DNA of 64,000 bases from Parcubacteria group bacterium LiPW_15 (GTDB taxonomy: Bacteria > Patescibacteriota > Minisyncoccia > UBA6257 > 2-01-FULL-56-20): positions 29,710 to 93,709 of the forward strand of contig VMER01000002.1 in NCBI GenBank assembly GCA_007375645.1, given 5' to 3'. A program made the position numbers and the translations under genes. The notes beneath the pieces are model-generated. The model was not told where the DNA came from and ran no database searches. It saw nothing but the letters and a program-made list of their open reading frames with translations. How positions within the stretch are numbered: position 1 is the stretch's first letter; each line of letters begins with the position of its first letter. This document shows, piece by piece, positions 2,385 to 56,948 of the stretch.

Positions 2385-3353
2385 CTACTTTGACTTCCTC
2401 ATCCACACAAGAAAGCCGTTAATGAATCTGTCGAATTTCGGGACGTTCCGTTCATCTAATTTTTTGGAAAGGTCCGGATCATTCTTTAATATCCGCCGGG
2501 CAAACCAATTTACCTTTGCTATGCCGAGGTCCATAAAAAAACCAGCTTCTTTGAATTTTTCAAAGTATTCTTCCGCGCGCAAATACGAGAACAATCTGCC
2601 GTGAAATAAAAAGTCTCCCTCAAGCGTCCCGGCCGCCGCCCCCAGCCCCTTTTTCTCAAAGCGCTCCTCATAAAGGCGTTGCTCGCAGATCAAATGATCC
2701 CAGCGGGTCATCTCCCCTCCCCAGTCAACATGGTCGCCGCCGGGTCCATACCAGATGGGCCCGAAAGAGGCGTAAAACCAGCCGTCATCCTTCAGATGTC
2801 TATTTGAACTTTTTAGAAAACCATCCATATCTTTTATATGCTCCAAAACCGCATCGGAAATTATCCAGTCAAATCTTCCTTCCGATTCAACTGTTTCAAA
2901 ACCTCCTTTCTCAAAAACCACTTCCACGCCAAATCGATCCTTGCACGTCTGCGCCACAAAATCCCACTCTTTTGAATATTCATAAACATCAAAGGCGGTT
3001 ATTTTTCGGGGGCGAAAGGCGGCTAGTTGAAAAATACAGTGTCCAAAACCGGCGCCTGGGACCAGAATCGAACTTCCCTTAAGAGCGTGCCGCCGGTCGC
3101 ACATGCGATAGGTTTTCTCCCGGAACATTCCTCCCTCTCGATTCAGGAACCACAACTTCCTGAGTTCGGGGGGCATTTCATCCCAAAGTCTGACTTTCAG
3201 CCATAAGTTAAAAAGATGTCGTTGGAAAAAATAATATATCAATTTTGCCTTTATCAGAAGGTGCCGCCAAGATGGCGTAGACTCTTCGATATCAATGGCT
3301 AAAATTCTTTTATTTTCCGGGTTCATGCGTTTTTTTCGCCAAAACTCTTTCAT
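2385..3353 (-). CDS. Class I SAM-dependent methyltransferase
   Basis: 322 aa. VPGAGFGH glycine-rich motif and DWIISDAVLEH. Confidence 0.65.
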   Translation of the reverse strand: MKEFWRKKRMNPENKRILAIDIEESTPSWRHLLIKAKLIYYFFQRHLFNLWLKVRLWDEMPPELRKLWFLNREGGMFREKTYRMCDRRHALKGSSILVPGAGFGHCIFQLAAFRPRKITAFDVYEYSKEWDFVAQTCKDRFGVEVVFEKGGFETVESEGRFDWIISDAVLEHIKDMDGFLKSSNRHLKDDGWFYASFGPIWYGPGGDHVDWGGEMTRWDHLICEQRLYEERFEKKGLGAAAGTLEGDFLFHGRLFSYLRAEEYFEKFKEAGFFMDLGIAKVNWFARRILKNDPDLSKKLDERNVPKFDRFINGFLVWMRKSK

Positions 3354-4476
3354 ACTCCGCGACTATCTTTTTTCCGTAGTCATCCCACGTAAAGCCCGAA
3401 GCGACCCGCTGTTTTGCCGACTCGCTCATCCGCTTAAGTTCTTCCGGGCGTTCATACAAATACAGAAGTTTTTCTTTCAGGGCATCTACGTTCCTTATCG
3501 GAATGACAAATCCATCGATACCGTCCCTTACAATATCGTCTCCTCCGGTGTTCGTCGTACAGATAACCGGCAATCCGCAAGCCATCGCCTGAGCCTGCAC
3601 GTAAGCCAGCCCCTCCTCGATAGACATCATCGCGAAAACCGAACCTTGAGAATAATATTTGTACATTTCGAAGTGCGGTATATGCCCAAGGTACCTGTAG
3701 CTTCCCGCGTACCTGGAAAAAAACGGTTTAATCTCGTCGTTTAGCGCCCCCATCAGCATAAGTTCTGAATTTGGAAGATTTAGCTCCGCACAAGCTTGCA
3801 AAAGATAATGTACGCCCTTCCTAAGGGACAATCCTCCAGCAAAAACAACACGAAACTTATTATCTTCTTTTTCCACCTGCCTGAAAGCTCCAAGGTCGAC
3901 TCCGAACGGCACATGTATTATTTTGGCCTCCGGTATCCCTTTTTCCAAAAAAGTTCTCTTCACGAATTTTGACGGCACGGTTATGTAATCCGCTTCTTCA
4001 AACGCACGAAGTTCCTTGTTTATTATTTTTTCATTGGAAATCTCTCCGCGCACTCCGAATTTTTCATACTCTTCGGATAAGATGTCTCTTTGGTAGATAG
4101 GATGGGAACTCGCGTGTTCTGCGATTGCCAGCGCTCCAAGTTCTTTCGCCCTCCTCATTCCGTACAACGATGAACTCGAAAATCCTGTAAAAATATCACA
4201 AGCTACAACCTGTCTCGCCGCCAGCCGATCATATATTTCGAGAATTGCATATTCCAAATCCAGCTTACGTCGGATTGCGAACGGAAGCTTGTGCCAACCC
4301 CTTTCGAGAATTTCTTTTATCAGGATCGATCTGGTTTTTCCTCTTTCGATCCCGTATTTAATTGCTTCAAACTTCGGGTAAGAGGTTATAAAACGCTCCA
4401 AGTAACCCCTTTCTTGGAGTTGCTTGGCAAGGAAAAACATATGGAACTTTCCGGCAACGGAAACAATTGTTCTCAT
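3310..4476 (-). CDS. Glycosyltransferase family 4
   Basis: 388 aa. FAGGLSLRKGVHYLL .. EEGLAYVQAQAMACGLPVICT, a GT1/GT4 C-terminal domain. Confidence 0.75.
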   Translation of the reverse strand: MRTIVSVAGKFHMFFLAKQLQERGYLERFITSYPKFEAIKYGIERGKTRSILIKEILERGWHKLPFAIRRKLDLEYAILEIYDRLAARQVVACDIFTGFSSSSLYGMRRAKELGALAIAEHASSHPIYQRDILSEEYEKFGVRGEISNEKIINKELRAFEEADYITVPSKFVKRTFLEKGIPEAKIIHVPFGVDLGAFRQVEKEDNKFRVVFAGGLSLRKGVHYLLQACAELNLPNSELMLMGALNDEIKPFFSRYAGSYRYLGHIPHFEMYKYYSQGSVFAMMSIEEGLAYVQAQAMACGLPVICTTNTGGDDIVRDGIDGFVIPIRNVDALKEKLLYLYERPEELKRMSESAKQRVASGFTWDDYGKKIVAEYERVLAKKTHEPGK

Positions 4477-5525: not shown

Positions 5526-7818
5526 TTTTTAGTGTCTTAACGGCGGAAAGGATGGCTTCTGCATCTTTCTTATAATTGTAGCGGCTTACCCTTTCATAAG
5601 ATTTTTGCCCGAATAACGCCCTCGTTTCAGCGTCCGCAGCCAGATAACCCAAGCGAGACGCGAGCTCATTCACATCCCCAACCTTAAAAATATAACCGTT
5701 CTCCCCACTCTCCACCAAATCCGGTCCGCAACCCACGATATCGGAAACTAAAACCGGAAGGGAAAAACACATCGCCTCGTTCACTACCAACCCCCACGTT
5801 TCTCCGGTTTCGGACGGCAGAACAAAAATATCGGCTACGGCATAATACTCGGTTATTTCTTCTTGAGATTTGAAGCCGACGAAATGTATGTTTAATATAT
5901 TCTTTTCCCTCGCATATTTTTCCAATTCGCCGCGCAATGGCCCATCCCCCACAAACACCAAGCCTGCTTGAATCCCCCTCCCCAGCAGTTTTTCGAAGGC
6001 CAGTAAAAGATCTTTCGGACGTTTTTTTTCGACGAGCTTACCTAGAAACAGTATGAGCGGAACTCCCTGCGGCAAATCAAGCCCACTCTTAAGCGCGGCT
6101 TTATTTACTCCAAGTTCTTCGTATTTTTTTCGAAATTTTTCGTTGTCCACGGCGTATGGGGCAAAAAATAATTTGCGAGCCGGCACCCCGTAGAACATAT
6201 AAAACTTTTTATTCTCTTCCCCTATATACATGAACGCCGAGACAAATCGGAACATCGAACTCAAAATTATTTTTTTCAAAAATAATTTTGCCCCGCTCTT
6301 TCCCGCGTTTTGAAAGAGAGGGCTTTCGCCCCTCATAATGATCGGCGTGCCGGTCAACACTGCGGCAAGGATCGCAAGCCAGTTCGAGAAGTAATTCCAT
6401 CCGTTCACAAAAATAGCATCGTACCCGTTCCTCCAAAGCTCAAAATATATTCCGGGATTGATCAGGCTGAAAAACCGTCCCACCGAAGAATATGGAGAGT
6501 AGTTCTTTAAAACTGTGTATTTCAGGCCGTCCAAAATTTCGGGGCCGTACCACCTCACAACCTTCCCGAAGGTTTCGTCCAATCCTGGCCGGATACTGAA
6601 GTCGGAACCGAAATATATTGAAAGATCTATCACCGGATTCTTTGCAATCTCCTTGTACAGATCAATCACGTAGTGGATCGGGTGCGAAACGAATGCTGCA
6701 AGCTTAATCGTTTCGTTTTCTTCGTCGCCGGATAAAAAATTACCGATCAATCCAGCCAAAATCGCCCCGGTTTTAACGGTTATTCCTTTTTTCAAAAAAA
6801 CATCCCTCCCGTTTTCCGCGATTTTTTTTCTTAACGCCTGGTTCTCGCTCAGCTTGATTATGGCATCCGCAAGATCTTTGGGATCAGCCGGCCGGCAAAA
6901 AACAATATTCTCTCCATCGGTAAATATTCTCGCGGCAGGCGCCGAATACCTTGTAATCACGGGCTTTCCCATAGCCGCAGCATCCCAAACCTTGAATGGC
7001 ACGACCATCCCCGCCTGTTCGGTGTCCCCAAAATGGCCTAAGCAAATATCTGCCTTCGCCATTATTTCGGGAAGTCTCTCTGCAGGGACAGAATCTAAAA
7101 AAATCAGATTACCGGGATCATCTTTTCGAACAAGTTTTATTATTTCGTCCTTTTCCGGACCGCTCCCTAAAATAGTTATTTTTAGATCGATTTTTGAGGC
7201 TAGTATTTTAGCGGCCGCAACTATGGTTTCTATCCCGTGTAGCGGATAAAAACTCGCGACGCAAAAAATCTTCAGCACCTCGCGCCCCCCTCCCCCCGCA
7301 TCCCTTGGAAAGAATATATCTTCATCGGAGCCAACCGGATAGATCCTTATCTTTTTTTTGTTTACCTTGAAAGTTTTATTGAAATAATCGCCGTGTTCTT
7401 CCGTATCTAAAAAGATTAGATCTGCCAATTTACAAGCCACAAAATCCAAGGCAAAAAAATACTTCGCCTTGATGGAGTTCGGAGATATTCGCCCCCCGCC
7501 TTCTCCGGCCACCCTTACGTGATAGTAGGAGATAAACGCATCCAAAATCACCCGCCGTCCGGTCAGTAATCCCAAAATTTTTGCCAGAGGCACATAAGCT
7601 TGTCCCGCAGCGCAAACTAAGATTAAATCCGCTTTTTTGTAAACTTCGAAATACATCTTCGCAAGTTCGAAACTGCGGATCCAAACCGAAGGCCGCCGGC
7701 TTTGGCATTCAAAAACCTCCACTCCGTTTCTCCTTAGCCCCTTTAGGGTTGTCCGGGGCCTTGCGTGTTCCGGGTCATAGCCGCCAAAATAAACGATGCT
7801 TGGAATTTTACCCCGCAT
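5503..7818 (-). CDS. Two-domain glycosyltransferase (tandem GT1/GT4-like modules)
   Basis: 771 aa. The N-terminal half has a GT-B pattern. The C-terminal half has ILFLGKLVEKKRPKDLL..VLPSETGETWGLVVNEAMCFSLPVLVSD. Confidence 0.65.
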   Translation of the reverse strand: MRGKIPSIVYFGGYDPEHARPRTTLKGLRRNGVEVFECQSRRPSVWIRSFELAKMYFEVYKKADLILVCAAGQAYVPLAKILGLLTGRRVILDAFISYYHVRVAGEGGGRISPNSIKAKYFFALDFVACKLADLIFLDTEEHGDYFNKTFKVNKKKIRIYPVGSDEDIFFPRDAGGGGREVLKIFCVASFYPLHGIETIVAAAKILASKIDLKITILGSGPEKDEIIKLVRKDDPGNLIFLDSVPAERLPEIMAKADICLGHFGDTEQAGMVVPFKVWDAAAMGKPVITRYSAPAARIFTDGENIVFCRPADPKDLADAIIKLSENQALRKKIAENGRDVFLKKGITVKTGAILAGLIGNFLSGDEENETIKLAAFVSHPIHYVIDLYKEIAKNPVIDLSIYFGSDFSIRPGLDETFGKVVRWYGPEILDGLKYTVLKNYSPYSSVGRFFSLINPGIYFELWRNGYDAIFVNGWNYFSNWLAILAAVLTGTPIIMRGESPLFQNAGKSGAKLFLKKIILSSMFRFVSAFMYIGEENKKFYMFYGVPARKLFFAPYAVDNEKFRKKYEELGVNKAALKSGLDLPQGVPLILFLGKLVEKKRPKDLLLAFEKLLGRGIQAGLVFVGDGPLRGELEKYAREKNILNIHFVGFKSQEEITEYYAVADIFVLPSETGETWGLVVNEAMCFSLPVLVSDIVGCGPDLVESGENGYIFKVGDVNELASRLGYLAADAETRALFGQKSYERVSRYNYKKDAEAILSAVKTLKNENFNCR

Positions 7819-16656: not shown

Positions 16657-17013
16657 ATGTTCAGATTAATAGCGCGCGCAATAATCGCGGTGGTTGTAAA
16701 CGCATTGGGCCTCCTCGCCGCTTCGTACTATATAAAAGGATTCAATCTGAATAATGATTTCCGGGAGATATTGGTCCTTGCCGCGGTTTTTACCGCCATA
16801 TATTTCATTCTGCGCCCGATAGTGAAAATGATACTGGGACCGTTTTTGGTTCTTACCTTGGGTCTCGGACTCATCGTGGTAAACGCCGCAATGCTATATT
16901 TGCTTGACTTAGCTTCCAAAAATCTTATGATAGATGGCGTCGGAGCGCTCCTTGAGGCAACATTGCTTCTGAGCGTACTAAACTTTGTTTTGCACTACGC
17001 GGAAAAAGAATGA
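16657..17013 (+). CDS. Phage holin family (Phage_holin_4_2-like) 4-TM membrane protein
   Basis: 118 aa. NALGLLAASY..LRPIVKMILGPFLVLTLGLGLIVVNAAMLYLL pattern. TGgTATAAT (16642-16650) lies 6 nt before the ATG, which suggests a leaderless transcript. Confidence 0.6.
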   Translation: MFRLIARAIIAVVVNALGLLAASYYIKGFNLNNDFREILVLAAVFTAIYFILRPIVKMILGPFLVLTLGLGLIVVNAAMLYLLDLASKNLMIDGVGALLEATLLLSVLNFVLHYAEKE

Positions 17014-17222
17014 TCTCAATAATATATATAATCGTAACCGTAGCCTTGGTAATCCTGATCCTCCTTCAACAGCGTTCGGGAGGAATGTCCGGTCTTTTTG
17101 GCGGCGATTCGAGCAGCTTCTATCAGGCTAGGCGCGGATTGGAAAAGTTCTTTCTTTGGGGCACCGTGATCCTTTCTATCCTTTTTGTGGCGCTCTCTCT
17201 TTGGCAACTGCTGGCGAAATAA
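17010..17222 (+). CDS. secG: Preprotein translocase subunit SecG
   Basis: 70 aa. LLQQRSGGMSGLFGG motif between two TM helices. Confidence 0.7.
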   Translation: MISIIYIIVTVALVILILLQQRSGGMSGLFGGDSSSFYQARRGLEKFFLWGTVILSILFVALSLWQLLAK

Positions 17223-17248
17223 GCGCGGCCGGGCGCAAAGAGAACTTG

Positions 17249-17345
17249 TCCCGTTAGAAAATTTTACGGATAATATATTTATTACCCGCACACCCAAAGC
17301 CCTCATGCACATCAGCAATATATCGTCTTTAATTTTCTAACGGGA
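17249..17345. repeat. Copy 1 of a TIR-bounded element. 15-bp perfect terminal inverted repeats TCCCGTTAGAAAATT / AATTTTCTAACGGGA flank a 67-nt core.
   Basis: 17249-17263 is the exact reverse complement of 17331-17345. The outer A of the right repeat is the A of the ATG of the downstream SBP gene. Confidence 0.7.
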
Positions 17346-18994
17346 TGACTTGGCTCAAGAAAATTTTTACGTCTTTCTCGGAGAGAGAGCGCCTTAGTTT
17401 CGTTATCGCCTGCGCCTCGGCTATAGTCGCAGGGGCGCTTCTTGTTTGGCTTATATTTTTGAATGTAACTACGGCCGCTCCCGCTCGCGGAGGCGATTAT
17501 GCTGAAGGCTTCTTGGGCCAGCCGGCCTATGCAAATCCTTTGCTCGCCGAAACCCCGGCCGACAAAGCTTTGGTGCGCCTCGCTTTCGCAAACCTACCCG
17601 ATCTGGCAGACAAAATAGAGAGCGATAAAACCGGAAAAGTTTATAAGGTTCGGCTCAAGGAAAATCTAACTTGGTCCAATGGGCAAAAGCTCACAAGCGA
17701 TGACGTCATCTTTACCCTCCAAAAACTTCAGGATCCGCAAACCGCGAGTCCGTATTTTTCGAACTGGCAAGGCGTCGCCGTAAGCCGAGTAAGCGAGCTT
17801 GAAGTCCAGTTCACCCTGGCCGCACCCTACGCGTTTTTTTCGCAGAGCCTTCAAAATTTTTACGTAGTCCCGAAACATCTTTTTGCCGACACGCCGGCCT
17901 CCAACTGGAAATTGTCCGACTACAATCTAAAGCCGGTCGGCTCCGGCCCCTACTCTTTTTATTCCTACGAAAAGAGGGATGACGGATTCATAAGCCTCTA
18001 CCGCCTCAAGGCCAACGAAAATTATGCCGGCGGCGCTCCGTATATAGAAAATTTCGATCTGCGCTTCTTCACCAAACCGGAAGATGTTGTTAAAGCATTT
18101 AACGCAGGGCAGATCGACGCCATTGCGGACTTGGATCCGGAAACCCTGAAGAGCATTCACCGCACCTATAATCTTTCGGAGTTTCTCTTGCCGAACTACT
18201 ACGCCGTTTTTTGGAATCAGAGCCAAAACCCGGCGCTAGAGGACTCATCTGTGCGGCAAGCGCTCTCTCTTTCCATAAACAGAAGCGAACTTATGCGCGA
18301 TGCGCTCTACGGCTACGGGCGAGAAAGCCTTGGTCCCGTCCCGAAGGACATTCCGGGCCTAATTATTTCCTACGCCTCCCAAGAAAACGATCCGAACCAA
18401 GCGAGCAACACCTTGGAATCCGCCGGGTGGAAAATGGCAGATCAAGGATTCCGCTCCAAAGAAATCAAAGGCGGCTCAATAGATCTTAAATTCAAACTGA
18501 CCGTGCCCAATATCCCGTTTTTGGTTTCCACCGCAAAAACCCTGGCCGCCGAATGGTCCAAGATCGGCGCAGCAGTCGAACTGAATATTCTGCCCCCAGA
18601 CGAAATAATCTCCGGCCAGATCAAGAACAGAAATTATGAAGCGGTTCTTTTCGGGAACCTTTTGGGATCTAACGGCGACCCGTACGCTTTTTGGCACTCT
18701 TCGGAAAAATACTATCCGGGACTGAATCTGGCGCTTTACGGGGACAAACCAGCGGACAAACTTCTCGAATCCATTCGCCAAAATCCGGACAGCGCGAGCC
18801 GCGCGACACAATTCCAAGACCTGTCTGACAAAATAACCGGCGCCTTTCCGGCGGTATTCCTATATTCCCCTTCCTACCTTTTTGTATCAAGCCGGGATCT
18901 AAACGGCGTCACGGGCGGGTTCCTGGGAGAGAATGCGGATCGCCTCCGAGCGGCTAAGGATTGGTACGTGAAAGTTGCACGCGTGTTTAAATAA
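17345..18994 (+). CDS. ABC transporter substrate-binding protein, family 5 (peptide/nickel type)
   Basis: 549 aa. N-terminal TM/signal anchor. SBP_bac_5-like composition. Confidence 0.7.
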   Translation: MTWLKKIFTSFSERERLSFVIACASAIVAGALLVWLIFLNVTTAAPARGGDYAEGFLGQPAYANPLLAETPADKALVRLAFANLPDLADKIESDKTGKVYKVRLKENLTWSNGQKLTSDDVIFTLQKLQDPQTASPYFSNWQGVAVSRVSELEVQFTLAAPYAFFSQSLQNFYVVPKHLFADTPASNWKLSDYNLKPVGSGPYSFYSYEKRDDGFISLYRLKANENYAGGAPYIENFDLRFFTKPEDVVKAFNAGQIDAIADLDPETLKSIHRTYNLSEFLLPNYYAVFWNQSQNPALEDSSVRQALSLSINRSELMRDALYGYGRESLGPVPKDIPGLIISYASQENDPNQASNTLESAGWKMADQGFRSKEIKGGSIDLKFKLTVPNIPFLVSTAKTLAAEWSKIGAAVELNILPPDEIISGQIKNRNYEAVLFGNLLGSNGDPYAFWHSSEKYYPGLNLALYGDKPADKLLESIRQNPDSASRATQFQDLSDKITGAFPAVFLYSPSYLFVSSRDLNGVTGGFLGENADRLRAAKDWYVKVARVFK

Positions 18995-19202: not shown

Positions 19203-19286
19203 GGGCGAGTGGTGAAACTGGCAGACACGCAGGCTTCAGGAGTCTGTGGGAGCAATCCCGTGGAGGTTCAAATCCTCTCTCGCCCA
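19203..19286 (+). tRNA. tRNA-Leu (anticodon CAG)
   Basis: GGGCGAG acceptor pairs with CTCGCCC. Anticodon stem CAGGC/GTCTG with loop TTCAGGA. Long variable arm GGGAGCAATCCC. T-loop TTCAAAT. Discriminator A. CCA is not encoded. Confidence 0.85.
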
Positions 19287-19382
19287 CACTATGATTTTCT
19301 TGGCAAGGCACGAACCTAGAAAATCTTGTGCCCCGCAAAATGCGGGACGAAAGAAAAATATAAACGAAAACAAAAAAATAAA

Positions 19383-30121: not shown

Positions 30122-30444
30122 GGGGATGCCGGGCTTCGATAATGATGTCCCGCGTGCCTGCGAACCGAGCGTGACCTCGCTAAACTCACAAAAACTTTAA
30201 CTGCCAACTTTAACGTTGCAGCTCCGTCCCGCGCTTTAGCTTACGCTTAAGACCTGACGGCGCCGATTGCTCTGGGTCTCTTAGAGTAAATCCGGTGTTA
30301 TATAAGGAGACTGGCAAACAGCTTTTGATTCCGAACTGTTTGTAAGAAATTGGAATCGTTTCTGCCTGATCTAATCAGACTACGTTCGTAGATGGCTCGT
30401 GTTCTTCATCTTTACACGGCGGTTCGACTCCGCCCATCTCCACC
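30122..30444 (+). ncRNA. ssrA: tmRNA (SsrA), 323 nt, CCA encoded
   Basis: 5' GGGGATGCCGGGCTTCGA pairs with 3' ..CATCTCC-ACCA to give a 7-bp acceptor with a G3:U70 wobble, the alanine identity element. T-arm GGCGGTTCGACTCCGCC. Internal tag ORF 30203-30250 gives GCC AAC TTT AAC GTT GCA GCT CCG TCC CGC GCT TTA GCT TAC GCT TAA = ANFNVAAPSRALAYA*. Confidence 0.85.
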
Positions 30445-30451
30445 AAATAAA

Positions 30452-46782: not shown

Positions 46783-46785
46783 TTG

Positions 46786-46857
46786 TGCTCTCGAGAGGAA
46801 TTGAACCTCTATCTTCTCCTTCGGAGGGAGATGTTCTATCCGTTGGACTACGAGAGC
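46786..46857 (-). tRNA. tRNA-Arg (anticodon CCG)
   Basis: Minus strand reads GCTCTCG-TA-GTCC-AACGGATA-GAAC-A-TCTCC-CTCCGAA-GGAGA-AGAT-AGAGG-TTCAATT-CCTCT-CGAGAGC-A. The D-stem has one mismatch. The 3' end lies only 3 nt from the UDG start codon. Confidence 0.7.
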
Positions 46858-55474: not shown

Positions 55475-56386
55475 CTAGAAAAAGGAAGCTTGGCGATCCG
55501 CTTCCTTCTCTTTTTGGGGCGTTTCTTTGGGGGTCGCGCTCATTTGTTTTAAAAGCGAACCGAAGCCCTTGGCCGCGAAATAGTTTTTGAGGGCGGTTTC
55601 GTCTTCGAAGACCGTGAGGTCGCCAAGTCCTTTGATGCCAAGTTGTGCGTCGCTTTGCAGAGTGACCAACTTCTCCGCCAAGAGAGCCTGCTCTTTGTGA
55701 GGAATTATTTTTTTGCTCACCTCTTCGTCGTTTTTTGCCGCCAAAAGTTTCGCAAGGCTCCCGTATTTTTGAAGCAATTTCGCCGCGGTCTTCGGCCCAA
55801 TTCCCGGCACCCCTTTAATATTGTCGGAGTTGTCGCCCACCAGAGATTTATAATCTGCGATAGATTTCGGATAGAGCCCGTATCGCTCCCTGACCGCCTC
55901 CGGGTCGTAGATGGTCGTTTCACTTATTCCTTTCTGCGGCACGCGCACGGAAACTTTTTTGTTCACGAGCTGGAGCGAATCCAGATCTCCCGTAAAGATC
56001 GTGGTTTCCGTTTCTTTTTCGCTGCCGAATTTTTTCGCGAGTGTCGCGATAAGATCGTCCGCCTCGTACCCGGGCTTTTCAAAAACCTTTATCCCGAAAA
56101 GTGGGAAGAGATTGTGTATCTCTATTAATTGCGAAATTAACTCGTCCGCCGTCTCCGGGCGGTTCCCTTTGTAGTCCTTATAGAGCTCGTCCCGAAAAGT
56201 CGGCTCCGGCCGATCAAAGAGCGCCGCGGCATAGTCCGGTTTTTCTTCGCGCCAAAGCTTCAAAAGAATTCTCGATACCCCGTATATTGCCTGGCTGGGC
56301 GATCCATCCGGCGCGGTCATCGGCGGAAGCGCGTGAAACGCGCGGTGTATAAGAGAGTTAGCGTCAATCAAAAGAAGTTTCTTCAT
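55475..56386 (-). CDS. 5'-3' exonuclease (FEN/Pol I N-terminal nuclease family)
   Basis: LLLIDANSLIHRAFHA .. KGNRPETADEL .. GYEADDLIATLA. Confidence 0.8.
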   Translation of the reverse strand: MKKLLLIDANSLIHRAFHALPPMTAPDGSPSQAIYGVSRILLKLWREEKPDYAAALFDRPEPTFRDELYKDYKGNRPETADELISQLIEIHNLFPLFGIKVFEKPGYEADDLIATLAKKFGSEKETETTIFTGDLDSLQLVNKKVSVRVPQKGISETTIYDPEAVRERYGLYPKSIADYKSLVGDNSDNIKGVPGIGPKTAAKLLQKYGSLAKLLAAKNDEEVSKKIIPHKEQALLAEKLVTLQSDAQLGIKGLGDLTVFEDETALKNYFAAKGFGSLLKQMSATPKETPQKEKEADRQASFF

Positions 56387-56491
56387 CCCGTTAGAAAATT
56401 TAACAATTTATATTTAGTTACCTTGGTTGTATTTAATTTCGCCCGACCCTGCCTCAGCAAACAAACTACTGTTTTTAATTTTCTAACGGGA
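56386..56491. repeat. Copy 2 of the TIR-bounded element. 15-bp TIRs, 16 bp counting outer A/T. 76-nt core.
   Basis: 56386-56400 TCCCGTTAGAAAATT is the exact reverse complement of 56477-56491. It fills the whole tsaE to exonuclease intergenic gap. The outer T at 56386 pairs with the A of the exonuclease ATG. TTCA lies on both flanks. Confidence 0.7.
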
Positions 56492-56492
56492 T

Positions 56493-56948
56493 TCATATAT
56501 TTTTTGTGATGATAGTTCTGCTTCCGCGATCCTTCCCGTGCTCCAGCGTTATCCAAGAAGCCCTCTCTGGGATGGAGTTTTTGATATTCCCCGCCCACTC
56601 CACAAGCAATATGTTTTTTGGATCATTAATTATTTCGCCAAACCCCAGAGGCGCCAGATCTTTGCCGCCGGAGAGTCGATAAGCGTCCATATGAAAAACA
56701 TTCTCGTAGCCATGCCGATTCTTCGGGATGTTGTGGCGCCTGAAAATTATGAAGGTCGGGCTCACCGCGCGCGCCTTAATTCCCAACCCCTTAAAAAACC
56801 CTTGAACGAACGTGGTTTTGCCCGCACCCAACTCTCCGGAAAGCGCCAGCACCCTGGCCCCTCTTTTTTTCTTTCCGCCCAATATCTTGCGAGCAAACTT
56901 CTCGGCGAGCTCTTTCGTCTCCGCCGCGGATTTTGTAACCGTCTTCAT
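56493..56948 (-). CDS. tsaE: tRNA threonylcarbamoyladenosine biosynthesis protein TsaE
   Basis: LSGELGAGKTTFVQG P-loop. 151 aa. Confidence 0.8.
   Translation of the reverse strand: MKTVTKSAAETKELAEKFARKILGGKKKRGARVLALSGELGAGKTTFVQGFFKGLGIKARAVSPTFIIFRRHNIPKNRHGYENVFHMDAYRLSGGKDLAPLGFGEIINDPKNILLVEWAGNIKNSIPERASWITLEHGKDRGSRTIITKNI

Follow-up and report, generated by a model that had tools for sequence, protein, structure and literature searches.

The window analyzed in this work, a stretch of 64,000 nucleotides (nt) from Parcubacteria group bacterium LiPW_15 (assembly GCA_007375645.1, contig VMER01000002.1, positions 29,710 to 93,709), carries two copies of an element of about 100 bp bounded by 15-bp terminal inverted repeats (TIRs; YCCCGTTAGAAAATT), each copy abutting the start codon of a gene. 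Copy 1 (17249-17345) is a complete element of 97 bp, made of a 15-bp arm, a 67-nt core and a second 15-bp arm, and occupies the gap between the genes encoding SecG (17010-17222, + strand) and a family-5 solute-binding protein (SBP_bac_5; 17345-18994, + strand). Its left arm, TCCCGTTAGAAAATT, extends from 17249 to 17263 (+ strand). Its right arm, AATTTTCTAACGGGA (17331-17345, + strand), holds a TAA codon (17338-17340, 7 nt before the ATG) and its final A at 17345 is the A of the SBP_bac_5 ATG, so that the first base of this start codon comes from the element. Copy 2 (56386-56491, - strand) is a complete element of 106 bp with a 76-nt core, located where the stop codon of the TsaE gene (56493-56948, - strand) and the start codon of a 5′-3′ exonuclease gene (55475-56386, - strand) would otherwise overlap as ATGA; it has the canonical class-A layout and a diverged core. 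At 56386, the plus strand carries a T, which pairs with the A of the exonuclease ATG. Read in the sense of the downstream gene, both loci therefore have the same layout: stop codon of the upstream gene, left arm, AT-rich core, right arm and ATG of the downstream gene.

Both the perfect inverted repeats of the two elements and the identity of their outermost base with the A of a gene's ATG had been proposed by an earlier sequence-only reading of the window, and both are borne out. The 15-mer TCCCGTTAGAAAATT has four exact sites in the window (17249-17263, +; 17331-17345, -; 56386-56400, +; 56477-56491, -), forming two perfect inverted pairs, and no fifth site was found there even when two mismatches were allowed; none of 100 dinucleotide shuffles reached four sites. 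A covariance model run over the window retrieved copies 1 and 2 as sole matches. The suggestion that the arm complementary to the translation initiation region could sequester it also agrees with RNA folding, which predicts a long terminal stem in the sense transcripts of both copies (z = -3.8 and -3.9). The alignment of the two cores in the same plus-strand orientation holds weakly: the local score is 21, compared to a mean of 13.8 for shuffles (standard deviation 2.3, maximum 24) and to 12 in the opposite orientation.

A widespread family in Patescibacteria

A scan of one genome per species with the pattern CCGTTAGAAAAT-N(55-85)-ATTTTCTAACGG, which requires both 12-mer arms to be exact and for which we estimate about 0.1 match by chance, revealed at least 117 further loci, mostly in metagenome-assembled genomes (MAGs) of Patescibacteria. 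The family statistics given below (n = 121, 123, 68, 47, etc.) were computed among the copies listed. The elements span 79-108 nt between the 12-mers and are devoid of any transposase open reading frame (ORF). Their hosts include Parcubacteria/Paceibacterota, Saccharibacteria and Giovannoni-, Lipton-, Buchanan-, Harrison-, Sungii-, Taylor-, Doudna- and Berkelbacteria. Besides these Patescibacteria, copies were detected on long contigs that bear the label Omnitrophota (148 kb and 593 kb), Firestonebacteria, Phycisphaerae or Pseudomonadota. Several MAGs harbor four to six copies each, and the present window alone harbors two. The two-arm pattern had no match in viral contigs, and the search of annotated plasmid and phage elements returned only chance-level AT-rich matches and no related insertion sequence (IS) or MITE (miniature inverted-repeat transposable element).

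Most pairs of cores have diverged beyond recognition. In variant copies, the inner part of the arm is altered on both sides while the outer CCCGTTAGA is constant, and the altered inner arms stay complementary (GAACCT/AGGTTC, GAGGTT/AACCTC, GAGGC/GCCTC and GAAGCT/AGCTTC). Compact core-less versions, in which the two arms form a simple hairpin (for example TTAA, CCCCGTTAGAAATGTAATTTCTAACGGGG, TTAA), were also observed (L006:2573-2705, L086:~6589-6614, L002:~3950-3985, L090:~3255-3285 and ~6745-6775); the one in L006 is nested within another variant copy that bears its own CTCA duplication. At two other loci, the arms tightly flank a complete tRNA gene, with no clear duplication at either: tRNA-Thr(tgt) at 7207-7279 within L019:7189-7300, and tRNA-Pro(tgg) at 1551-1622 within L078:1533-1640. 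These may be cargo-carrying versions, i.e., mobile tRNA genes, or pairs of solo ends. Finally, in the subfamily whose elements end in C..G, the right arm is repeatedly followed by TTGAC (CTAACGGGGTTGAC), which places a -35-like hexamer at the element edge (junctions in L002, L004, L025, L040, L065, L074, L076, L080 and L113). This could reflect either outward-facing hybrid promoters or a longer TIR.

Evidence of mobility

An exact 4-bp direct repeat flanks the element precisely at the boundary of the 15-mer in 71 of the 121 copies with enough flanking sequence. These flank repeats reach 5 bp in only three cases, and inverted ones were found in six. The commonest duplications are TGAA/TTCA (n = 42), followed by TTTA/TAAA, TGGA/TCCA and TCAA/TTGA. 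The reconstructed target is R followed by the duplicated TGAA, with A (57/72) or G (13/72) at position -1 and, over the duplication itself (n = 72), T in 68, G in 54, A in 62 and A in 67 of the targets. Furthermore, two copies from the same MAG (L062 and L068) differ by only 2 of 105 nt but are located at separate loci and are flanked by separate duplications (TGGA and TGAG), which indicates recent transposition.

Copy 2 provides the most direct case. It is flanked on both sides by TTCA (56382-56385 and 56492-56495), in which the sequence-only reading had recognized a possible 4-bp target duplication, and empty sites in relatives confirm this proposal. In L122 and L123, whose exonucleases are 83% and 78% identical to that of the window, TsaE and the exonuclease gene share an uninterrupted ATGA overlap; L125 (exonuclease 83% identical) likewise lacks the element, its TsaE gene stopping 3 nt short of the exonuclease start. 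The L122 junction reads CAAAAAACATATGAAAAAACTTCTTTTGATAGAC (shorter excerpt: CAAAAAACATATGAAAAAACTTC) and the window reads CAAAAAATATATGAA, then the element, then TGAAGAAACTTCTTTTGATTGAC (shorter excerpt of this right flank: TGAAGAAACTTC). The empty junction thus corresponds to the window flanks minus one duplication, showing that copy 2 is a 106-bp insertion accompanied by a duplication of TGAA. That copy 2 was inserted where TsaE stops and the exonuclease gene starts, within their ATGA overlap, is therefore proven. A Logan contig (SRR8863432, L119:1-25) that encodes an identical exonuclease begins 25 nt upstream of this gene, i.e., within copy 2; the repeat apparently breaks short-read assemblies.

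The family has all the structural features of a MITE apart from a known autonomous partner, and it is almost certainly one, i.e., a non-autonomous TIR transposon. Among the interpretations offered by the sequence-only reading, that of a MITE-like mobile repeat is thus the one upheld, by the further copies that it had proposed to seek and that the two-arm scan retrieved, by the family-wide 4-bp duplication and by the empty site.

Targeting and regeneration of start codons

The last base of the arm (A or G), together with the flanking TG, opens an ORF of 60 amino acids or more in 68 of 123 copies, compared to 1.6% for random positions in the same loci. The former NTG is still present directly upstream of the element in 48 of these 68 gene-start copies, which shows that the target was the A/TGAA of a start codon. 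In most copies ending in T..A, the terminal A (or G) of the element and the duplicated TG together remake an ATG (or GTG). The association depends on the subfamily: 53 of the T..A-ended copies are at gene starts and 12 are not, compared to 15 and 37, respectively, for the C..G-ended ones. Nearly all of the 55 remaining copies are intergenic, and few copies are spanned by long ORFs.

Copy 2 illustrates this regeneration. The gene-proximal duplication (56382-56385; TTCA on the plus strand, TGAA in gene sense) remakes, with the A of the arm, the exonuclease ATG-AA, and the distal one (56492-56495) preserves both the old ATG (56496-56494, - strand) and the TsaE stop codon TGA (56495-56493, - strand). 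Copy 2 is one of 11 copies in which the duplicated TGA doubles as the stop codon of the upstream gene. The sequence-only reading had seen both the shared base of the ATG and the possible duplication but had not connected them as a start codon that is targeted and then rebuilt by the element.

The genes hit are housekeeping genes unrelated to one another. Of 47 insertion sites, 30 are at tight operon junctions (upstream ORF ending at most 30 nt from the retained ATG or overlapping it), compared to 31% of ordinary gene starts. A crude survey of the family loci indicated that 23% of long ORFs begin with ATGAA, so that the target of the element is abundant. Leaderless promoters were sought at insertion sites and are not enriched above the gene background (36% versus 31%). 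At L045:2596-2742, a cut-down older copy of about 45 nt (ATGAA, TCCCGTTAGAG...GAGGGA, TGAA) is located directly 5′ of a complete copy that is inserted in the regenerated ATGAA. On the basis of this arrangement, one start codon appears to have been hit twice.

Core anatomy and mini-ORF

The core is oriented in a fixed manner relative to the downstream gene: 46 pairs of cores reach a local score of 30 or more, and 45 of them are co-oriented. Alignments of the canonical subfamily show, in order: (i) ATGAA, (ii) TCCCGTTAGAAAATTAAnAAAnATG, (iii) a stem interrupted by (A/T)GTCG(G/A), (iv) GTTTAATTTTCTAACGGGA, and (v) TGAA. GTCG occurs 38 times in gene sense and three times in antisense within the cores. 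Twenty of these GTCG are enclosed in hairpins with 5 bp or more, at a constant 19-20 nt before the core's 3′ end, compared to 4.6 on average and at most 10 in shuffles. This inner hairpin shows two-sided changes at five of its six stem pairs, and its covariation, measured per sequence and with a hand-given structure, exceeds that of all 500 shuffles and of all slid controls; RNAalifold applied to the family alignment recovered the terminal stem alone. The sequence-only reading had named a lack of further copies and of covariation as what would speak against it; copies were found and the inner hairpin covaries. The cores also have a conserved internal ATG, some 12 nt past the left arm, and, just 5′ of the right arm, a terminator-like hairpin trailed by a T-rich run, with a stop codon inside the arm. 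These three features suggest that the element is a deletion derivative of an IS.

The retained upstream ATG opens a frame that crosses the whole core in 34 of 47 copies, compared to 5.6 for shuffled cores, 10 for reverse-complemented ones and three and seven for the other two frames. Similarly, the conserved internal ATG starts an ORF of 15-29 codons (mode 25) that reaches the right arm in 43 of the 68 gene-start copies, compared to 3/68 in antisense and 6.1 in shuffles; away from gene starts, such ORFs are at chance level (10 versus 8.2). These mini-ORFs end (i) at the TAA of the arm itself, 7 nt before the rebuilt ATG (TTC TAA CGGG ATG), (ii) at a TGA overlapping the rebuilt ATG (ATGA), or (iii) at a TAA at position -15, where the arm meets the core. 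Each of the three frames is thus closed beside the rebuilt start. Moreover, subfamilies read the 3′ half of the core in different frames, ending in LIF or in NFLTG before the stop codon, which indicates that it is openness rather than the peptide that is conserved. In copy 2, the mini-ORF (56383-56496, - strand; 37 codons, MNPVRKLKTVVCLLRQGRAKLNTTKVTKYKLLNFLTG followed by the stop) begins at the retained ATG, crosses the entire element and stops at the TGA that overlaps the rebuilt ATG.

A mobile MITE that targets start codons and carries a built-in translational relay is probably the best explanation of these results taken as a whole. Ribosomes initiating at the old site, often coupled from the upstream gene, would translate the mini-ORF and thereby unwind the terminal hairpin; they would then terminate within a few nt of the rebuilt start and reinitiate there, and the interrupted gene would stay expressed. 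Termination-reinitiation at ATGA-type junctions is established. An insertion in the initiation site of a housekeeping gene would thus be tolerated. An insertion in the reverse orientation or with a closed frame would shut off the gene and be selected against; the orientation bias would follow from this. The element itself would be moved by a DDE-type transposase acting in trans, as the target-site duplication leads us to propose. From the frame statistics, this putative tolerance mechanism is well supported, and it is moderately plausible that such a relay keeps the interrupted gene expressed. The retention of a Shine-Dalgarno motif at the old ATG was considered as a further support for the relay and set aside: it was found in 1 of 47 copies, compared to a background of 10%, a result that is uninformative since these motifs are rare genome-wide (present 5′ of about 10% of long ORFs in a crude survey of the family loci).

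A more ambitious proposal, which we put forward tentatively and to which we give somewhat less than even credence, is that the element is adapted to translation initiation sites: it would home to ATGAA, regenerate the start and hand the ribosomes on by means of stops in all frames, within 15 nt of this start or overlapping it. The start of an essential gene would then be a safe harbor, since the start codon would go if the element were lost imprecisely.

Points against this interpretation and the atypical copy 1

Several observations weigh against the interpretation developed above. No autonomous element and no transposase gene with matching ends, whose presence the sequence-only reading had suggested checking, was found in about 0.9 Mb of family loci. 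The scan required exact 12-mers, and the conservation of the arms is therefore partly an ascertainment effect. Both window copies lack the conserved internal ATG and the GTCG hairpin, and the open frame of copy 2 taken alone is not significant, being expected by chance in about 12% of cases. The open frames could have come down from master copies instead of being selected locus by locus, and the rarity of Shine-Dalgarno motifs might mean that the rebuilt start is used directly, without coupling. Finally, copy 1 has no target-site duplication (CTTG on its left, TGAC on its right), and the SecG-SBP_bac_5 spacers of close relatives are unrelated to that of the window and to one another (all z < 2).

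Copy 1 is indeed an atypical member of the family, whereas the sequence-only reading had treated both copies alike. The best matches of its core to other cores are antisense, and the covariance model scores it at 45.8 bits on the minus strand versus 44.3 on the plus strand (E ~1e-7). Its terminator-like inner hairpin (17265-17290, - strand; 11 pairs) is located beside the left arm, which marks an inverted orientation. On the plus strand, a possible upstream ORF of 11 codons (17305-17340; MHISNISSLIF) ends at the TAA of the arm, 4 nt before the SBP_bac_5 ATG; it is speculative, and it is part of a longer open frame (17185-17340). A weak promoter-like match (TTGTCC-17-GATAAT) is present at 17246-17274, and a transcript initiated there would lack the left arm.

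The history of this locus was examined in relatives. SBP_bac_5 orthologues start at the same codon as that of the window. In close relatives, whose SBP_bac_5 proteins are 86-76% identical, the spacers are 121-142 nt long; those compared are 17223-17344 in the window, L126:1374-1500, L127:1359-1500 and L128:1380-1500. We considered that these relatives carry decayed orthologous copies of copy 1, and the spacer comparisons led us to reject this possibility. Their similar length but unrelated sequence indicates that the SecG-SBP_bac_5 spacer turns over unusually fast. In a relative with 64% identity, the spacer has only 20 nt, and no clean empty site was found among close relatives. In the window, 26 nt of non-element spacer are left in this gap. 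We infer that copy 1 is a rearranged member that was inserted at the start codon and then underwent an adjacent deletion, an inversion or a recombination between copies, and that about 100 nt of the ancestral spacer are missing. IS copies devoid of duplications are known to arise from such rearrangements (PMC11708052). Copy 1 is also bracketed by a perfect 12-nt inverted repeat (GGCGCTCTCTCT at 17189-17200, in the 3′ end of the SecG gene, and AGAGAGAGCGCC at 17382-17393, in the 5′ coding part of the SBP_bac_5 gene). This repeat is probably coincidental, as we estimate that about one such pair is expected per window.

Alternative explanations

The complementarity of the arms and their position lend themselves to a regulatory explanation, in which the elements are exapted cis-regulatory RNA hairpins, mobility being only their origin. 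The stem would hide positions -14 to +1 and would repress or gate translation as a thermosensor or as a switch opened by a protein or by ribosomes. A strong stem is indeed predicted in both transcripts (z ~ -3.9), the right arm stops exactly at the start codon and complementary inner arms are preserved in variant subfamilies. However, complementary ends are expected in any TIR transposon, the arms are also found at 55 sites away from gene starts and around tRNA genes, and the targets are unrelated housekeeping genes without any common regulatory logic. Above all, an open and oriented mini-ORF that ends at the start codon argues for constitutive read-through rather than for a switch. We therefore regard this explanation as quite unlikely. 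Of the translation-controlling hairpin suggested by the sequence-only reading, the part that stands is the covering of the initiation region by the arm; for the rest, the data favor a mini-ORF relay over a conditional switch. Another explanation, unlikely rather than negligible, is that the mini-ORF plays no part in host expression and is a relic of the parent IS, made of its transposase start, its 3′ end, its terminator and the stop in its arm, the rebuilt start being used directly. The internal ATG just past the left arm fits this explanation, as does the succession of terminator-like hairpin, T-rich run and in-arm stop, a layout typical of IS deletion derivatives; moreover, initiation independent of Shine-Dalgarno motifs is seemingly the norm in these genomes. 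Against it stand a sense frame that, in spite of the divergence of the cores, is open about six to seven times more often than in shuffles and only at gene starts, an openness that is kept while the frames of the 3′ half differ between subfamilies, and the fixed orientation of the core relative to the gene.

Two other explanations concern the nature of the element itself. Its size and structure (a hairpin-forming doublet of about 100 nt with a covarying inner hairpin and a conserved loop) and the lack of any DDE partner in the family loci could recall REP/REPIN-like or IS200/IS605-derived palindromes, moved as single-stranded hairpins by an HUH enzyme (RAYT or TnpA). However, REP/REPIN and IS200/IS605 systems are not known to make target-site duplications, whereas exact 4-bp duplications of varied sequence flank 71 of the 121 copies and the empty site demonstrates a true duplication of TGAA; we rejected this identity, which is very improbable. 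Likewise, perfectly conserved arms around diverging cores are what could be expected if the arms were paired operator sites for a DNA-binding regulator or, as the sequence-only reading had also considered, if the element were the gene of a small structured RNA. This is barely credible given the duplications, the empty site and the near-identical copies at unrelated loci of one genome. A search of Rfam returned nothing at gathering thresholds and, at E ≤ 1, only two chance-level matches (E = 0.37 and 0.72), and the small RNA proposal is further disfavored by the unconserved cores, the unrelated neighboring genes and the orientation of the copies by the host gene. Integron attC sites were also considered. 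They are expected to show R'' (RYYYAAC) followed by R' (GTTRRRY), with imperfect pairing and extrahelical bases, 3′ of cassettes. In the present family, GTTAGAA comes before TTCTAAC, the opposite of that order; the two pair perfectly, the final base of either core is off consensus, and this identity was rejected.

The start-codon-targeting MITE thus remains the interpretation that we retain. As for the transposase that would move it, nearly every unpaired arm in the family loci has a degenerate partner at a distance of about 100 nt, and no pair of arms at a transposase-sized distance was detected. The 4-bp T...A duplication and the (C)CCC ends recall IS1380/piggyBac-like, IS701 or IS5-group elements, which we presume to be a lead and not an assignment.

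Other features of the window

Apart from the elements and their neighbors, the window contains a tmRNA gene (30122-30445; 107 bits with Rfam) whose tag peptide is ANFNVAAPSRALAYA, and two tRNA genes, tRNA-Leu(cag) at 19203-19287 and tRNA-Arg(ccg) at 46785-46857.

Significance and comparison with known systems

Genomes of the candidate phyla radiation (CPR)/Patescibacteria are small and densely coded, and are thought to be poor in mobile DNA. This work reveals a MITE with nearly invariant ends that spans many CPR classes as well as Omnitrophota and Firestonebacteria. The family would be of use as a marker for horizontal exchange between uncultured lineages of groundwater, and would be a recurrent source of assembly breaks and of start-codon mis-annotation. 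If the safe-harbor proposal were true, it would explain how near-invariant ends persist across CPR lineages and other phyla, in tiny and gene-dense genomes. The design that associates a rebuilt start with a mini-ORF could also be put to use as a coupling cassette that is portable. Provided that the relay holds, the element would be a natural case of a transposon that neutralizes its own insertion in essential genes through translational coupling, a situation absent from a 2024 review of prokaryotic MITEs (PMC10969869). This review covers promoters, integration host factor (IHF) sites, RNase III/E processing, small RNAs, ORF-bearing elements and the in-frame fusions of Rickettsia palindromic elements (RPEs), and the term "start codon" does not appear in it (PMC10969869). 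No earlier description was found in the literature searched, and the family is apparently undescribed. Overall, it is an element of a known kind, a MITE, whose lifestyle had not been described before and whose host range is unusually broad.

The elements share many properties with other bacterial MITEs, such as Correia/CREE of Neisseria, ERIC, RUP and MITEAba12: a size of about 100 bp, TIRs, absence of a transposase gene, multiple copies, target-site duplications, a long hairpin once transcribed and a frequent position just 5′ of genes. Correia elements duplicate TA; the present elements, with their 4-bp duplication and 15-bp arms of unrelated sequence, were rejected as members of that family. 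Correia elements have 26-bp TIRs and Neisseria hosts (PMC10969869), and they too influence neighboring genes, their TIR stem being a substrate of RNase III (PMC10969869). Unlike other MITEs, the present family has (i) a 4-bp TNNA duplication, mostly TGAA, (ii) arms unrelated to those of known families, (iii) CPR and Omnitrophota hosts, and (iv) a preferred target, the start codon, that is rebuilt by the end of the element and at which an oriented mini-ORF ends.

The comparison extends to systems other than MITEs. Like REP, BIME and REPIN mobilized by RAYTs, the elements are hairpin-forming repeat doublets of about 100 nt, abundant near gene boundaries. REPINs are not known to have target-site duplications and carry a conserved GTAG-type head; they differ in this from the present family and its 4-bp duplications. 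RPEs are, like the present elements, palindromic and mobile, and survive inside essential coding regions of reduced genomes in a manner compatible with translation; each RPE carries an ORF (PMC10969869). However, RPEs keep the frame of the ORF that they enter and are incorporated into the host protein, whereas the mini-ORF found here is a separate upstream one that stops beside the regenerated start; an in-frame fusion was found in only 2 of 47 copies, and an assignment to the RPEs was rejected. A parallel in geometry is with translationally coupled gene pairs (ATGA/TAATG), as the mini-ORF stops 7 nt before the downstream start or overlaps it and copy 2 occupies a former ATGA overlap. Such a proximity of stop and start is the geometry used for coupling within operons. 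The difference is that here this geometry sits in the terminal repeat of a mobile element, which installs it upon insertion, and that the coupling is putative.

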